Shown here: positions 3,106-37,523 of the stretch, piece after piece
Numbering within the stretch: the first letter of the stretch is position 1
How the letters are laid out: each line of letters begins with the position of its first letter
Source of the DNA: a virus
Taxonomy: Duplodnaviria; Heunggongvirae; Uroviricota; Caudoviricetes
Length of the DNA stretch: 41,900 nt
IMG/VR virus record: IMGVR_UViG_3300028960_000080
Location: 1 to 41,900 of that record
Reading direction: 5' to 3' (one strand)
Position numbers and translations under genes: made by a program
The notes under the pieces: generated by a model
Databases searched by the model: none
What the model was told of the DNA's origin: nothing
The model's input: only the letters and a program-made list of their open reading frames with translations

Positions 3106-3467
3106 TATGCTCCAGCCTCCGGTGCTTTTGGCATTACTGCCCAGTGAGTGATATTGACGTTTTCAAGGTCCCCGACCTGAAATGTCCACTGCCATTCTCC
3201 GGTTTCTTTTTGTCCCCTGGTGTACCAGAGAGAACGCCAGCCAATTAGCCAGCCTTCTCCGTTAGCATCGAATAACAAAACACTTTCATTTGCTGGTGGC
3301 AGTTCAGTTGACACTGGTATTACTTTGTTTTCCTGTGCTGCACATTTAGCTTCAAGCGCATCGAATTTACGCACCAGGTATTCAGCATCCGTTTCATTCA
3401 CTTTCAGATCTCGCGGTACACATTTCCCGCGAAGAAACCCTTCCATTTCGAAAACATTCATGCGCAT
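3105..3467 (-). CDS. Hypothetical early-left protein (120 aa)
   Basis: ORF in the leftward operon, overlapping the stop of the HD-domain gene; Trp-rich C-terminal half. Confidence 0.55.
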   Translation of the reverse strand: MRMNVFEMEGFLRGKCVPRDLKVNETDAEYLVRKFDALEAKCAAQENKVIPVSTELPPANESVLLFDANGEGWLIGWRSLWYTRGQKETGEWQWTFQVGDLENVNITHWAVMPKAPEAGA

Positions 3468-4946: not shown

Positions 4947-5011
4947 AATAAGTCCTCACTATATAAAGATATTCAGTGATGAGATAAATAATCAGTTAAT
5001 TAAGAACGATA

Positions 5012-5374
5012 TTAATGACCTGCTGCGCGTAATTTTCCGTCAGGCTCACCGGCAAGAGTCAGTAATTGTCCCTGGTCTTCCTGCAGAATAGTCAGGCGAC
5101 CACCGCGATTGACATACATCGGCGTTTCGGTGGTGTCTTCTTCGGAAATTTTCCCGCGGTTAGTCGGGCGAACATATGAGAGTTTGTGTTTGATTTTCAC
5201 ACGGTTCTCATCAAATGGTTCGATTTCCAGGTTGAGTGAGACCTTACCTTTGGTTTTCGTGTTCATCACACCGGAAGCGACTTCACTGAGAACTGCGCCG
5301 ATTTTGGTTTCAAATACGCCGCCGTCCAGCTCCCCGATAAATGCCTGCACATCAGTACTGCGTTCGCTAGCCAT
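5012..5374 (-). CDS. Hypothetical early protein (120 aa); start set at the internal ATG with a GAGGAG Shine-Dalgarno
   Basis: The 226-aa track ORF has a GC-rich, Arg/Cys-rich N-terminal extension with no ribosome-binding site; the ATG at 5374 is preceded by GAGGAGCAGCAAA. Confidence 0.6.
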   Translation of the reverse strand: MASERSTDVQAFIGELDGGVFETKIGAVLSEVASGVMNTKTKGKVSLNLEIEPFDENRVKIKHKLSYVRPTNRGKISEEDTTETPMYVNRGGRLTILQEDQGQLLTLAGEPDGKLRAAGH

Positions 5375-5399
5375 TTTGCTGCTCCTCATCATATCGACC

Positions 5400-5700
5400 C
5401 TGCAAGGTCGGTTGGTTTCTCCACAAAACAGAGAAGAACACCTGCGGTGGCAGCCGCCCGGATGGATTGGGTTATGAGCCCGTCGTCCGGTGATGCTCTT
5501 CTCTGTTTTGTAAAAAGGACGGTACCAGCCGGAAGCAAGGGTACAAACTGGTACCGCCAGGACTACACACAGCATAAAGTTGTGGTGCCTGGTGCCTCCC
5601 GGTGCCTGGCGAAGGTTGCACACCAGACGGGTGGGTATCCACAGAAGGTCGACTGTCAGCCTCAACCTTAACCCGCGTGCGCTGAGCCGCATTCACCACA
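5400..5700. other. GC-rich structured non-coding region (candidate cis-acting RNA or sRNA) within the leftward early operon
   Basis: Perfect 15-bp inverted repeat 5423..5437 / 5497..5511; 9-bp inverted repeat 5520..5528 / 5548..5556; three GGTGCCT copies at 5584..5607; no ORF with a credible ribosome-binding site. Confidence 0.4.
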
Positions 5701-5811
5701 ACGCCAAGGATTCTCTTTGGTTGAAAATACTTAGCTGTTATGTGCCTGTCTTTTCACCACTTCAGGCTCGGTGGTATCCTTTTAAGCCCGTATACATAAA
5801 AGGAAAATCAA

Positions 5812-6057
5812 ATGACTTTTGATGAAAAAGAACTTGATAATGCAATTAATAAAATCATCGTAACGTCGCTCTTTTCCTGTCTCAGCGACACTCAGCAGAA
5901 ACAGTTCTACGAATCGGCTTTCAACATGATCGAGAGTTGTTGTTTCTGCGATGCCGACGAGTTACCTGAAATAATCAGGAAACAGTTGGCTGATGCTCTT
6001 CGAGTGCGACTTTCTGACCAATTTTCTGAAATGTGCTCTCCGAATTTGGACAAATAG
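5812..6057 (+). CDS. Hypothetical small acidic protein (81 aa), rightward, AT-rich
   Basis: ATG preceded by AAAAGGAAAA; converges on and overlaps the 91-aa minus-strand ORF by 83 nt, so one of the two may be spurious. Confidence 0.35.
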   Translation: MTFDEKELDNAINKIIVTSLFSCLSDTQQKQFYESAFNMIESCCFCDADELPEIIRKQLADALRVRLSDQFSEMCSPNLDK

Positions 6058-6250
6058 AAAAAGGCCATTTCCATTCAGGGTCTGATGGAAATACTTCAGC
6101 CTGTTCCAAAGCACGGCGTAAAGAGAATACAACTCCAGCCATAGCCTGATGTTTCCCATTGGTCCAGCTATCGCCGCTCTGATCTACAGGAGCGGCTATG
6201 TCGTATGACCAAACGACTTCACCACTATTGTTTAAAATCTGGACTTTCAT
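5975..6250 (-). CDS. Hypothetical small protein (91 aa)
   Basis: Strong GGAGG Shine-Dalgarno 8 nt upstream of ATG; co-oriented with cI and the early-left operon. Confidence 0.5.
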   Translation of the reverse strand: MKVQILNNSGEVVWSYDIAAPVDQSGDSWTNGKHQAMAGVVFSLRRALEQAEVFPSDPEWKWPFSICPNSESTFQKIGQKVALEEHQPTVS

Positions 6251-6258
6251 TTTGTTCT

Positions 6259-6480
6259 TTAACCTCCAGATTTCCGCGCATCTAAAGGTGCATTCTCATT
6301 TGGTGTGAACTGAATAGTTGTGCTGATATTGATTAATGCTCCGACACACAAGACTACGCACTCAGAGCAGATAGCAACTTCATCTTTTCCGCCTTTGGCG
6401 ATGATTTTTTTTGCCTGCAGCTCGTTTGCGCCACAAAACGAGCATGTGAAATAACGGTTCATTTGCGCTCTCTTACACAT
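6259..6480 (-). CDS. Small ClpX-type C4 zinc-finger protein (73 aa)
   Basis: CSFCG...(19 aa)...CSEC spacing matches the ClpX N-terminal zinc-binding domain; first gene downstream of the putative pL. Confidence 0.6.
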   Translation of the reverse strand: MCKRAQMNRYFTCSFCGANELQAKKIIAKGGKDEVAICSECVVLCVGALINISTTIQFTPNENAPLDARKSGG

Positions 6481-6646
6481 AGTATTTAACGAATCATCCG
6501 GTCATCCATACGCCACCGGCGGCTACTTCGTGGGCGTCCTGCCTGTTCGTTATCTTTGACATAAAATCTAACTTAACTTAGTTATTATGGCAAGAGAAAA
6601 CACCAAACTTTTCTTAGTTCGGTGCCTTAGTTAGAGAAGAGAGGTC
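6481..6646 (-). promoter_or_regulatory. Candidate oL/pL region
   Basis: Palindrome CTAACTTAACTTAG (6567..6580) resembles the oR palindrome; minus-strand TTGCCA (6592..6587) - 16 nt - TAGATT (6570..6565) overlaps it. Confidence 0.45.
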
Positions 6647-7273
6647 TTAGAGTTCGTATTGAACTCCTTTGACTACACCAATGATAAGGCAATTACCATT
6701 GATAGGGATGTTGGGATACCGAGGATTTAATGGCACTAAAAACTTTTGAGGGCCATCGATGACTAATTTTTTTACTGTAGCTTCGTTTGTTCCATCAAGT
6801 CGAGCGATGACTATTTTTCCATGACGAGGTTCTGCATCTGGATCTACAATCACTGTTGCGCCTTCTGGTATTGTTGGGAGGCCATTAGGGTTAGTCATGG
6901 AGTCACCTTTAACCTCTAATGCAAATGAGTTATCACCAATCTTTAATGATGTATCTACCCACTTGTCCACTTCACTAAACACTTCTGCTGCCCTGCACTC
7001 AGTAAACTGCCCAGCCTGAACCCACGATATTACAGGAACTCTGCGCATGTTTGTGACGAGTTTGCCTTCAAACTCAGCACCATAAAGAATGTAATCTATT
7101 GACGTATTGAAGAACTTCGCTAATTTCGAAAGTGCCTCCCCACCAGGGGTATTGATGTCTTTCTCCCAGTACCCCACAGCAACGTCGCTTACTCCACAAA
7201 ATTTACCCAATTCTTTCTGGGACGTTCTGGTAACTCTTCTCAGAGCTTTTATACGCTGACCAACCGTTTCCAT
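6647..7273 (-). CDS. cI: CI-type repressor (N-terminal HTH, C-terminal S24 LexA-like autopeptidase)
   Basis: HTH region (QKELGKFCGVSDVAVGYWE), GDSM serine motif and downstream Lys (VKKL) typical of S24 repressors; divergent from a cro-like gene. Confidence 0.9.
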   Translation of the reverse strand: METVGQRIKALRRVTRTSQKELGKFCGVSDVAVGYWEKDINTPGGEALSKLAKFFNTSIDYILYGAEFEGKLVTNMRRVPVISWVQAGQFTECRAAEVFSEVDKWVDTSLKIGDNSFALEVKGDSMTNPNGLPTIPEGATVIVDPDAEPRHGKIVIARLDGTNEATVKKLVIDGPQKFLVPLNPRYPNIPINGNCLIIGVVKGVQYEL

Positions 7274-7370
7274 AGGAGCACCATTTCTTGAATTGCTAAG
7301 TAATCTTAGTTTTTATTGACCAAAGATAGATTTGTAATTAGCATCTAATAAAACTTAGTTTGGAGGGCGT
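7274..7370. promoter_or_regulatory. oR/pR/pRM immunity switch region
   Basis: Divergent cI/cro arrangement; palindromes CTAAGTAATCTTAG (7296..7309) and CTAATAAAACTTAG (7345..7358); TTGACC (7316..7321) as candidate pR -35; GGAGGG Shine-Dalgarno before cro. Confidence 0.6.
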
Positions 7371-7571
7371 ATGACAACTGACGATATCGAAAGCTACTTC
7401 GGCAGTATTGAGAAAGTTGCTGCTTTTTTCGGCATAACAACTGAAGCCGTTTATCAGTGGCGAAACCGTCCGGGCCAGTTAATTCCAAAAGGACGTGCAG
7501 CAGAAGCTGCATATAGAACTTGCGGACGGTTGCCATTTAAACCTGAGCTTTATGAAAAATCTAATGGATAA
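7371..7571 (+). CDS. cro: Cro-like HTH regulator (YdaS-like), 66 aa
   Basis: Small HTH protein (AAFFGITTEAVYQWRNR) divergently transcribed from cI. Confidence 0.75.
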   Translation: MTTDDIESYFGSIEKVAAFFGITTEAVYQWRNRPGQLIPKGRAAEAAYRTCGRLPFKPELYEKSNG

Positions 7572-8166
7572 ATCGATTAACAGAAACCACAGAACGATGA
7601 GGCTAACCGTGGGTAAGCATCACTGGAAAGTAGAAAAACAGCCTGAGTGGTACGTGAAAGCTGTCAGAAAAACTATCGCAAAGTTGCCGGGTGGTTACGC
7701 TGAAGCAGCTGACTGGCTGGATGTAACAGAGAACGCATTATTTAACCGCCTTCGTGCTGATGGCGATCAGATTTTCCCGCTGGGATGGGCAATGATTTTG
7801 CAACGTGCTGGTGGAACTCACTTCATTGCTGATGCTGTGGCGCAGTCTGCTAATGGCGTCTTTGTGTCTCTTCCTGACGTCGAGGATGTGGACAACGCCG
7901 ATATTAACCAGCGTCTGCTGGAAGTCATTGAACAGATCGGCAGTTATTCAAAACAGATTCGTTCAGCAATCGAAGACGGTGTAGTGGAACCGCATGAGAA
8001 GACAGCAATTAACGACGAGCTGTATCTCTCAATTTCGAAGCTGCAGGAGCATGCAGCACTTGTCTACAAAATTTTTTGCATTTCAGAAAGTAATGACGCC
8101 CGCGAGTGTGCAGCTCCGGGCGTCGTGGCGTCGATTGCTTCTGGTTGTGGAGAAACTAACGCATGA
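7495..8166 (+). CDS. YdaT-like protein occupying the cII position (start uncertain)
   Basis: ORF following cro; resembles the ydaS-ydaT pairing of Rac-like prophages; the track start is a GTG overlapping cro and alternative ATGs lack a clear ribosome-binding site. Confidence 0.55.
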
Positions 8167-8501
8167 ACAGTTTAACAACACACTACCGTCGCTCGCAACT
8201 GATTGCGCTTCCTGTACCGGGTGGAAAAGCGAAGGTGGAGTATTGCTATGCAGTAAATGTACCAGGTGACAGGGAAATTGTAACCCACAGCTTTGCAGAG
8301 TGGGCTGTGGGTGATTTCAACCGGCAGAAGGAGACAGTCCTTTGCGACAAGTTAACCGCTGGTTCAAAGATCACTACGGAGTGCCCGTCAGAGTCATTCG
8401 TTGGGAGCCGGAAACACAACGGGTTATCTACCTCCGCGAAGGCTATGAGCATGAGTGCTTCAGTCCGCTCGAACAGTTTCGTCGTAAATTCAGGGAAATA
8501 G
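8163..8501 (+). CDS. Hypothetical protein (112 aa), possibly frameshifted or partly spurious
   Basis: ATGA overlap with the upstream gene suggests coupling, but the C-terminal third is Ser-rich low complexity while an alternative frame encodes a protein-like sequence. Confidence 0.35.
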
Positions 8502-13164: not shown

Positions 13165-13181
13165 TTTGGTGGAGAAAGTTG

Positions 13182-13535
13182 ATGTGTGATATGTATGAAG
13201 TATTAGACCGTTGGGGAGCGTGGGCTGCGGCAGAGAACAGTGGTGTGGATTGGCAACCGGTAGCCGCTGGCTTCAAGGGGCTTTTACCTCATGGCAGAAA
13301 GTCCCGGATTCAGTGCGATGATGATGAAGGCATCATGATTGATGGCTGTGTCGCCCGCCTGCGGAAGTATAAACCAGAAGAATATGAGCTGATCATTGCT
13401 CATTTTGTGATTGGTATCTCATTACGCACCATTGCTAAGAAAAGAAAATGCTCTGATGGAGCAATTAGAAAAGAGCTTCAGGGAGCTATAGGGTTTATAT
13501 CAGGTATTCTATTATTGTTAGGCGAAGCCCTCTAG
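13182..13535 (+). CDS. Q: Late antiterminator Q (phage 82 / QuuD type)
   Basis: VLDRWGAWAA...AAGFKGL...RIQCDDD...GCVARLRK closely resembles DLP12 QuuD as I recall it; ATG at 13182 with GGAGA Shine-Dalgarno. Confidence 0.8.
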   Translation: MCDMYEVLDRWGAWAAAENSGVDWQPVAAGFKGLLPHGRKSRIQCDDDEGIMIDGCVARLRKYKPEEYELIIAHFVIGISLRTIAKKRKCSDGAIRKELQGAIGFISGILLLLGEAL

Positions 13536-36590: not shown

Positions 36591-37523
36591 ATGCATCGTA
36601 TAGACACGAAAACCGCGCAGAAGGATAAGTTCGGCGCGGGTAAGAACGGTTTTACCCGTGGTAACCCCCAGACCGGCACGCCTGCCACCGATCTGGATGA
36701 TGACTACTTTGACATGTTGCAGGAGGAGCTTTGCAGCGTGGTGGAGGCATCCGGTGCCAGCCTGGAGAAGGGGCGGCATGACCAGTTGCTTACAGCGCTT
36801 CGTGAGCTGCTGTTAAGCCGCAAGAATCCGTTTGGCGATATCAAATCGGATGGCACGGTGAAAACGGCTCTCGAAAACCTTGGTTTGGGAGATGGCTCGG
36901 GGCGTTACAGCAAAACTGTCGTTTTTTCATCGTCGGGTTCATATACGTGGCCAGCTGACGTAAAACGAATTGACGTTATTCTGACTGCGGCGGGCGGCGG
37001 TGGCGGTGGATGTAACGCGGAGAACGCAAATCAGACATTTTCAGGGGCTGGCGGAGGAGCCGGAGGTACTGTTTTTGCCACTATTTATGCGACAGACAAC
37101 GATGCCGGGCCAGGGACCTATACAGTGACAATTGGTAGCGGTGGTAGTGGTGCCAATGGGCCAGGGTCTGGAAATAATGGCGGTCATAGTTCGTTCATGA
37201 CATTAACTGCGCTCGGCGGCCAGGGTGGGCAATGGGGCGGCGCTACAAATACCGCTGGCGGGCTCGGTGGTTCAGGCTCTGGCGGTTATAAAACTGAACA
37301 AGGCGGAGACGGTTCAGACGGACAGGCGGGCCAGGCGCTATTAGTAGGCAATGGGGCATCGAGCTATTGGGGTGGCGGCGGCCGCGCTGGGCAACTGAGC
37401 GGTAATTCTGGAGTTTGCTCTGGCTCCGGCGGCGGGGGTGCATACGATAATAGCTATTCACACACGTCAGGACGTGGCGGGCACGGAGCTAATGGCGTGC
37501 TGGTAATTCGGGAGTACATGTAA
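36591..37523 (+). CDS. Tail fibre protein with Gly-rich C-terminal region
   Basis: N-terminus [22 protein letters not shown] typical of side tail fibre N-termini; long Gly-rich repeats ([23 protein letters not shown]). Confidence 0.7.

Follow-up and report, generated by a model that had tools for sequence, protein, structure and literature searches.

A conserved structured RNA cassette in the early-left operon of an SfV-like prophage, with affinities to STnc100-type and DicF-type small RNAs

Introduction

The described RNAs closest to the element treated here—a non-coding RNA cassette in the leftward early operon of a lambdoid prophage, contained in 41,900 nucleotides of viral DNA (IMG/VR record IMGVR_UViG_3300028960_000080, positions 1 to 41,900; this whole stretch is called 'the window')—are small RNAs (sRNAs) of three kinds. 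RNAs of the STnc100/PasD family are carried by lambdoid prophages, and their known members map to the late region in the vicinity of Q, stx, an esterase gene or lysis genes, e.g. 75 nt downstream of stx2B. EcOnc27, sRNA103 and PasD are reported as Hfq-bound sRNAs, the Pas sRNAs have been validated by northern blotting, and it is for these relatives only that the Hfq association of STnc100-type RNAs is reported. DicF is encoded in the ydfABC-dicF-dicB locus of the Qin prophage of Escherichia coli K-12; its 5′ seed (nt 1-13, UUUCUGGUGACGU) is used for xylR and pykA, and an RNase III-dependent 72-nt isoform ends 19 nt past the 3′ end of the 53-nt form (PMC5069750). Finally, the last 47 nt of RprA constitute a processed, functional isoform of this RNA, with nt 61-75 as its 5′ single-stranded part (PMC9262595).

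A first-pass annotation of the window had drawn attention to a GC-rich, repeat-structured gap between the leftward early genes and the small genes next to cI, in a phage where it could identify no N-like gene, and had proposed a cis-acting structured RNA comparable to the put RNAs of phage HK022, a processed sRNA or, equally possible, a remnant of a deleted gene or a foreign insert. put RNAs bring about terminator read-through without protein factors, via the zinc-binding domain of the beta-prime subunit of RNA polymerase. The pL operon of phage lambda also contains RNase III hairpins, i.e. the N-leader site and sib.

Here we show that the minus strand between 5703 and 5420 consists of three RNA modules, i.e. 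a two-armed core, a seed followed by a terminator, and a long hairpin (table 1), which together form a non-coding RNA cassette that is both conserved and structured and represents neither a put RNA nor the remnant of a gene. The cassette adds to the STnc100/PasD family a variant that is new in class and in context, joined to an sRNA module of the DicF type with an RprA seed, and no description of it was found in the literature searched. The region is a conserved structured RNA that exhibits compensatory base changes. Among the original proposals the evidence favours the processed sRNA, in our reading one that is processed or terminated.

A two-armed core with compensatory base changes

All the sequence features that had first drawn attention to the gap are indeed present. 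GC content rises to 0.545-0.57 over 5300-5700, compared with 0.355-0.48 on the flanks. The 15-bp perfect inverted repeat (5423-5437/5497-5511) extends to 25-nt arms of 84% complementarity; the 9-bp repeat (5520-5528/5548-5556) extends to an 11-13-bp stem, which on the minus strand is followed by CUUUUUA and thus represents an intrinsic terminator; and the GGTGCC(T) copies (5583-5609) are the 3′ arm of the core, with the third GGTGCCT owed solely to a window-specific substitution at 5590. Repeats, terminator, hairpin and arm make sense on the minus strand only, i.e. the strand read from pL, and secondary-structure prediction, which had been suggested as a check, shows this strand of the whole 436-nt gap to fold better than shuffled sequences (z = -5.2).

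The core comprises 126 nt and five helices. Its arms (GGUGAAUGCGGCUNAGCGCACGCGG ... CACCGGGAGGCACCNGGCACC) are near-invariant within otherwise unrelated sequence and read UUG(U/C)GGUGAAUGCGGCUNAGCGCACGCGG on the 5′ side and CACCGGGAGGCACCNGGCACC(A/G)CAA on the 3′ side in an alignment of the window, e14, ST64B, 118970_sal3, phiES15, P1, JL22 and one PPompW prophage, while what lies between the arms is exchanged for unrelated sequence from relative to relative. Searching viral contigs for the 3′ arm yielded at least 120 stretches; among the matches listed, GGTGAAT is found 73-111 nt upstream of the 3′ arm in 126 of 138 hits, and the 96 distinct cores represented there fall into two classes, with class I being the canonical STnc100 type (GGUGAAU-CCCCCUGUGCGGAGGGG) and class II the type of the window (GGUGAAU-GCGGCUNAGCGCACGCGG).

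Base-pairing in the core is kept in the alignment of 31 distinct class II members: 97.8% of cells are paired versus 91.5% in shuffles (reached by 0 of 500), 48 cells have changed on both sides versus 15.7 in shuffles, and in slid controls at most 47% are paired. Helices P1, P3 and P5 covary, with P1 swapping U-A for A-U (13 versus 13) and U-A for C-G (12 versus 12) and P5 swapping G-C for U-A (16 versus 14), i.e. compensatory changes, which had been suggested as a check, do occur among the relatives. The only broken cell at its P5 pair among the 31 cores is G5600 opposite A5590 (plus-strand T) in the window itself; SfV keeps the pairing base at the equivalent position, and the substitution may reflect slight decay of the window copy. 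A class II covariance model (R1) scores the window core at 105.5 bits, with the window sequence having been part of its training set, and finds no further core copies within the window.

At curated thresholds Rfam has no match anywhere in the window. In a separate permissive scan (E up to 10), STnc100 (RF02076) aligns over its full length at 5724-5509 with 30.3 bits (gathering score 47; E = 2.6e-4), and the copies in the window, e14, Qin, P1, ST64B and phiES15 all score 29-41 bits (E 1e-5 to 1e-2), i.e. below threshold. STnc100, PasD and EcOnc27 have the overall plan of the element in the window: a multi-hairpin core is closed by a GGUGAAU 5′ arm and a CACCGGGAGGCACCNGGCACC 3′ arm, and a linker leads on to an intrinsic terminator. 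They differ in the second hairpin, which is CCCC-CUGUGCGGN-GGGG in STnc100 and UGCG-GCUNAG-CGCA followed by CGCGG in the window type, and in location, since the element in the window resides not in the late region but early-left, between cI and yfdP and next to DicF-type modules. We place the core with the STnc100/PasD prophage sRNAs, as a relative that scores below threshold.

An RprA-like seed and a DicF-type terminator

The core is followed by the 14-mer UGCUGUGUGUAGUC, which matches K-12 rprA in all 14 positions (a score reached by 0 of 500 shuffles) and, as in processed RprA, is single-stranded and immediately followed by a terminator hairpin and its U-tail. RprA is otherwise different: no other similarity was detected, its terminator is another one, its ydiK-ydiL locus is not in a prophage, and its rpoS-pairing 5′ part is absent from the window. 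Likewise, the Rfam RprA model (RF00034) gives no match in the window at E up to 10, and the phiES15 homologue reaches 41 bits with a threshold of 70. The 14-mer is kept in e14, SfV and phiES15 and differs by one base in ST64B. Its linkage is to the window type of core: among the matches listed, its 8-nt part TGCTGTGT accompanies 25 of 35 class II cores at a distance of up to 200 nt (16 downstream, 9 upstream) but only 1 of 71 class I cores. The sequence of this module points to what may be phage mimicry of the host regulator RprA, an sRNA of the envelope-stress response.

The terminator is predicted to form a 13-bp stem with U5 (-23.8 kcal/mol, z = -3.8). Its hairpin can be aligned to DicF over 50 nt, with none of 500 shuffles reaching the score, and is homologous to the DicF terminator hairpin. 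On the Rfam DicF model (RF00039; gathering score 48 bits), 5571-5517 scores 15.7 bits (E = 3.2) and the e14 copy 28.5 bits. DicF nt 14 is the first position aligned, i.e. the 5′ seed of DicF is absent and the RprA-like 14-mer is found instead. The dicF locus of Qin and the window thus have in common the type of operon (early-left and repressor-controlled, a context shared with PPompW as well), a homologous terminator hairpin, a class II core and a long duplex right after the sRNA terminator, which in Qin is known to be cut by RNase III to give 72-nt DicF. The order of the modules is different, being core, sRNA terminator and long hairpin in the window, and sRNA terminator, core with a long closing helix, and dicB in Qin; the genes downstream are yfdP, yfdQ and yfdR in the former and dicB in the latter. 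Several Qin-like viral contigs feature the seed-plus-terminator module of the window in the position of DicF, just upstream of the core.

Phage mEp460 shares the terminator, the long hairpin and yfdP with the window, as do many Stx2 and cdtI phages by BLAST, but its seed is another one (AGCCACUGCUUU) and its core has diverged. This core (stretch L185, 2695-2831) obtains 25.3 bits (E = 3e-4) on the class II model and features GCGCA-GGCUGA-UGCGC as P2 and CCGGAGAUCAGCACCGGUCACC as 3′ arm. Its sequence suggests a third class of cores together with swapping of the seed, which is a way in which sRNA families diversify. The comparison with mEp460 thus reveals a layout—core, variable seed, DicF-type terminator, long hairpin—that is kept while the seed changes. 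The cassette has a recombination joint just after the terminator, and in the comparison with mEp460 the joint maps just after 5559 of the window; the suggestion of a foreign insert holds in the sense of a mobile mosaic module and fails in any other.

A long hairpin with a tRNA-like tip

The third module, M3, is a Y-shaped hairpin whose basal stem contains the 15-bp inverted repeat. It is exceptionally stable (-48.3 kcal/mol, z = -7.3; none of 200 shuffles equally stable) and is kept in e14, ST64B and sal3, with some base changes that leave the pairs intact; similar hairpins precede the cores in P1 and in viral contig L029. In Qin the equivalent place is held by the 16-bp closing helix of the core, inside which the end of the 72-nt DicF isoform falls. 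By this analogy M3 may be an RNase III processing site that separates an sRNA from the downstream mRNA. The N-leader and sib hairpins of lambda are comparable in being long, near-perfect hairpins in the leftward early transcript, located between a regulatory RNA and coding sequence; they differ from M3, where cleavage is a prediction, in having no sequence similarity to it and no look-alike of the anticodon arm of initiator tRNA.

This look-alike is located at the tip of M3 (CGACGGGCUCAUAACCC) and is predicted to fold into a 3-bp stem with a 7-nt loop. Its match to K-12 metZ, i.e. three G-C pairs and the loop CUCAUAA, was not reached by any of 500 shuffles; this comparison was made after the resemblance had been noticed, for which reason we regard the match as a lead. 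UCAU in the loop is kept in ST64B, sal3, P1 and L029, though not in e14. From its sequence, the tip could be a mimic or decoy, or the likeness could be due to chance.

Distribution and genomic contexts

A scan of one genome per species detects two-armed class II cores in Enterobacterales only, with Escherichia, Shigella, Citrobacter, Enterobacter, Pantoea and Mixta as the genera represented and some of the 3′ arms slightly divergent. Matches to the 22-nt 5′ arm elsewhere (Polaromonas, Comamonadaceae, Acidobacteriota and others, including stretches L142, L145, L150, L160 and L178) were discarded as chance, because the 3′ arm is missing and the sites are located in GC-rich coding sequence. Among 5426 complete E. 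coli genomes, 2785 have a match to the cassette, which is also present in SfV, ST64B and P1.

In all contexts examined, class II cores lie inside repressor-controlled early operons. In ST64B the core is found between cI and sb37 (a yfdP homologue), where there is no open reading frame (ORF); in phiES15 it is upstream of kil, in P1 it precedes tciA by about 30 nt within the ban operon, and in Qin—and likewise in PPompW—it is located between dicF and dicB. The Qin core (stretch L130, 2454-2583; 128.5 bits on R1) fills the entire dicF-dicB spacer and is unannotated. The e14 core lies beneath the annotated 'ymfH' ORF, upstream of xisE. This ymfH (b1142; stretch L131, 3070-3381) exactly covers the cassette copy, with the core at 3261-3385 followed by seed, terminator and long hairpin, and is probably not a protein gene. 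None of the class II copies in ST64B, e14, phiES15, P1 and Qin is annotated as an RNA. Thus, K-12 contains two core copies that have not been recognized as RNA, one under 'ymfH' of e14 and one in the dicF-dicB spacer, with the latter accounting for the RNase III cut, known for long, from which 72-nt DicF arises, and the reach of the STnc100/PasD family widens from late to early phage operons, where it acquires a physical tie to DicF-type sRNAs.

Some further observations were made at these loci. Just after the P1 core (stretch L002, approx. 2377-2407), AACCUUAUU can pair with AAUGAGGUU, which contains the Shine-Dalgarno sequence of tciA, and this may represent a translational hairpin beside the core. 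On its early-right side, ST64B has a second non-coding RNA cluster, with isrK (64 bits) adjacent to a C4 antisense RNA (80 bits; stretch L004, 5565-5753). For class I, two or three cores can be found within about 1 kb of a single operon (L020, 2324-3352; also viral contigs L087, L029, L108 and L031). Among described prophage RNAs, svsR of the NC-SV prophage and co293 are encoded at a different locus, i.e. the 3′ end of cI, and HnrS/EcOnc10-12 is a 66-nt sRNA among late genes, so none of these corresponds to the present element.

What does the cassette do?

Given its covarying structure, its homologies, its consistent genomic context and the lack of a coding signal, all of which are directly observed, the region is probably a non-coding RNA cassette, transcribed leftward on the minus strand within a repressor-controlled early-left operon, and constitutes the SfV/e14-type counterpart of the dicF locus of Qin. 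Its most likely function is that of a DicF-type cassette which yields an Hfq-type sRNA from the pL transcript; it is here that we infer expression, Hfq dependence, processing sites and targets. RNA polymerase starting from pL would first transcribe the multi-helix core, then some 20 unpaired bases with the 14-base seed of processed RprA, and would then reach the DicF-type intrinsic terminator. Termination would generate an RNA with a hairpin and a U-tail, i.e. the usual Hfq-binding 3′ end, and a similar 3′ end could arise from read-through transcripts by RNase III cutting in the 23-bp hairpin, a cut that would at the same time let the yfdP-yfdQ-yfdR...xis-int message begin with its own 5′ end. 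An sRNA of about 65 nt would be set free by cleavage in ACUUUAU, the AU-rich linker that follows the core, and could act in trans on host mRNAs via its RprA-like seed. As to the core, our guess is that it accompanies DicF-family sRNAs as a scaffold for folding, processing or stability.

Several points weigh against this reading. In Qin and P1 the core is not followed by a terminator and is located 20-30 nt ahead of a ribosome-binding site, which means that it has a role independent of being the 5′ part of a terminated sRNA. The occurrence of up to three cores within 1 kb of one operon fits poorly with a passive 5′ domain of an sRNA, and about 50 near-invariant bases in loops and junctions are beyond the needs of a passive scaffold, which suggests that something specific binds the core. 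Moreover, the stability of the isolated core is unremarkable (z = -0.95) and the window copy has its one broken P5 pair. Potential seed targets in the phage itself were not above chance (host targets were not searched), the K-12 annotation has no non-coding RNA at the e14 copy or between dicF and dicB, and expression data for the locus were not found in the searchable literature.

A cis-acting role of the core, i.e. antitermination of a non-put kind or a sensing leader taken together, therefore deserves consideration even if it is unlikely. In a broader version, which we regard as rather unlikely, the core would bind RNA polymerase, the ribosome, a metabolite or the like, i.e. some conserved component of the host, and gate read-through into or translation of dicB, kil, tciA or yfdP...xis-int in N-less enterobacterial prophages including Qin and e14, and the tip of M3 might be a decoy or dock, for instance for an initiator tRNA-cutting nuclease or, together with IF3, for the 30S P site.

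If the core were a cis-acting antiterminator, similar to put in function though not in ancestry, the nascent RNA would modify RNA polymerase such that pL transcripts pass the terminator at 5558-5512 towards yfdP...xis-int, thereby replacing N in N-less lambdoid phages. It is indeed the case that an intrinsic terminator follows immediately on the core and separates pL from the excision genes, that no class II context examined has an annotated N, and that near-invariant arms amid unrelated flanks would fit contact with a conserved host machine. In the window, the statement that N is missing while Q is present has held up: Q is identified by its PF06530 match (13179-13535), and the first two pL genes encode a ClpX-type zinc finger and a phrog_3195 member, neither of which is N-like. 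Sites resembling boxA are not more frequent than expected by chance and do not occur on the minus strand in 5000-6600, and the hallmarks of a lambda-type N/nut system, i.e. an arginine-rich N as first pL gene with boxA and boxB, were not found, with boxB not having been searched for. For asking how lambdoid prophages that lack N get past the terminator separating pL from their excision genes, a defined RNA element is now at hand.

Kinship with HK022 put, however, is not borne out. A covariance model (R2), built from six putL sequences, recovers the putR sites of HK022, phiEt88 and UPF_BP1, i.e. three controls outside the model, with 36-37 bits (E about 1e-7), but not the element: its sole hit in the window is at 37210 with 12.5 bits, nothing in 5000-8500 exceeds 4.6 bits even when the filters are switched off, and there is no put match in the homologous loci of ST64B, e14, Qin and SfV. 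put and the core are alike in being structured RNAs in early operons of N-less lambdoid phages, upstream of a terminator, but put has about 70 nt with two stem-loops and follows directly after the promoter (shortly downstream of pL, and about 270 nt from pR), whereas the larger core with its five helices begins approximately 860 nt downstream of the pL candidate, past two ORFs. A similarity of AGCGC(A)CGCGGGUUAAGGUUGA to put nt 35-56 (18 of 22 positions with putL) was rejected as weak, with 8 of 500 shuffles doing as well, and it lies partly in a stretch that varies among class II cores. Furthermore, the Qin-type core is located after the sRNA terminator, directly before dicB, the P1 core directly precedes tciA with no terminator downstream, class I relatives reside in Q-controlled late operons, where antitermination is already supplied, and relatives accumulate as Hfq-bound sRNAs. 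All in all, antitermination by the core appears quite improbable.

Even less probable is a sensing leader, of the riboswitch or the protein-binding type, whose fold would set termination (window, e14, phiES15) or translation initiation (dicB in Qin, tciA in P1) of the next gene. The same multi-helix junction before either a terminator or a ribosome-binding site would be typical of riboswitch classes, and in the core the junctions and loops have invariant bases whereas the peripheral hairpins vary. Yet the core has no match among Rfam riboswitches, there is no obvious ligand or binding factor, and an operon with as many as three copies inside 1 kb is unusual for a leader. A 7-nt complementarity between CGCCAGG (5611-5605) and CCUGGCG at the base of the terminator (5561-5555) could provide a pairing that competes with the terminator; it is present in the window and e14 but was dropped as evidence, because it is not conserved in ST64B or phiES15 (sequences read by eye).

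That the region codes, or once coded, for a protein, either a small YmfH-like protein or a product of which only a remnant is left, is hardly credible in spite of overlapping ORFs of 74-80 amino acids (aa), of RefSeq/GenBank records that annotate a 'hypothetical protein' or YmfH over the region (with K-12 'ymfH' over the e14 copy) and of PHROG families for these ORFs, which are without assigned function and may stem from miscalled ORFs. Core lengths are spread evenly over the residues modulo 3 (12/11/8 in class II, 18/25/17 in class I) and none of the reading frames stays open in over about 55% of the members, which places conservation at the level of RNA rather than protein; it follows base-pairing and not codons, and near-invariant arms with an insert swapped for unrelated sequence argue in the same direction. 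As to the earlier statement that the gap has no ORF with a ribosome-binding site, mechanically called ORFs do overlap it, but these have neither a Pfam match nor a frame conserved in relatives.

Genomic setting

The window is a lambdoid, SfV-like prophage, and the gap (5376-5811, 436 bp) is 98.9% identical to phage SfV. Table 1 lists the elements of the cassette together with the surrounding genes and sites.

Table 1. Features of the cassette and its surroundings in the window.
Feature	Position	Strand	Remarks
YfdP-like gene	5012-5374	-	120 aa; phrog_204, E = 1e-49; = SfV orf32, ST64B sb37
Downstream unit	5012..5410	-	small hairpin 5410-5395, Shine-Dalgarno GAGGAG 5387-5382, then YfdP-like gene
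Long hairpin M3	5420..5514	-	95 nt, Y-shaped; 23-bp basal stem = 15-bp inverted repeat; starts inside terminator U-tract
M3 tip CGACGGGCUCAUAACCC	5469..5485	-	16/17 bases = initiator tRNA-fMet anticodon arm
Intrinsic terminator	5512..5558	-	stem GGCGGUACCAG (5558-5548) / CUGGUACCGUC (5528-5518); U-tract 5516-5512
Seed-like 14-mer UGCUGUGUGUAGUC	5561..5574	-	single-stranded; identical to RprA nt 61-75
Class II 'GGUGAAU...GGCACC' core	5578..5703	-	126 nt; STnc100-like; covarying helices
Core closing helix P1	5702-5694 with 5587-5579	-	
Core hairpin P2	5691-5678	-	UGCG-GCUCAG-CGCA
Core P3	opens 5675-5672	-	variable inner hairpins after P3
Core hairpin P5	5602-5588	-	CCGGG-AGGCA-CCAGG; one pair broken by window-specific A at 5590
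Leader upstream of core	5704..5811	-	small hairpin 5719-5704 and weak promoter-like pair
Convergent ORF	5812-6057	+	81 aa; phrog_3311
Second pL gene	5975-6250	-	91 aa, function unassigned; phrog_3195
First gene after pL candidate	6259-6480	-	73 aa, ClpX-type C4 zinc finger only; PF06689, E = 1.4e-10
Candidate pL	6565..6593	-	TTGCCA, 17-nt spacer, TAGATT; consensus scan only; just left of cI
cI repressor	6647-7273	-	ORF list
cro	7371-7571	+	ORF list
Q	13179-13535	+	PF06530; strand opposite to cassette, 7.5 kb away

The candidate pL would drive leftward transcription across the cassette, and the genes beyond the gap in this direction are homologues of yfdP, yfdQ and yfdR. The leader of the core also contains a promoter-like pair, AAGACA (5752-5747) and TATTTT (5729-5724) separated by a 17-nt spacer, which matches the consensus in 8 of 12 positions, i.e. 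below the threshold of the scan; that this pair functions as a promoter is speculative. A search of the window for tRNA and tmRNA genes found none.

The 73-aa protein encoded by the first gene after the pL candidate consists of a ClpX-type zinc finger only and, as judged from this domain, could interfere with substrate or adaptor binding by ClpX. The second pL gene and the convergent plus-strand ORF, both of which have strong PHROG matches, overlap by 83 bp, an arrangement also found for ymfI/ymfJ in e14, and a transcript from pL must cross this plus-strand gene in antisense before it arrives at the cassette.

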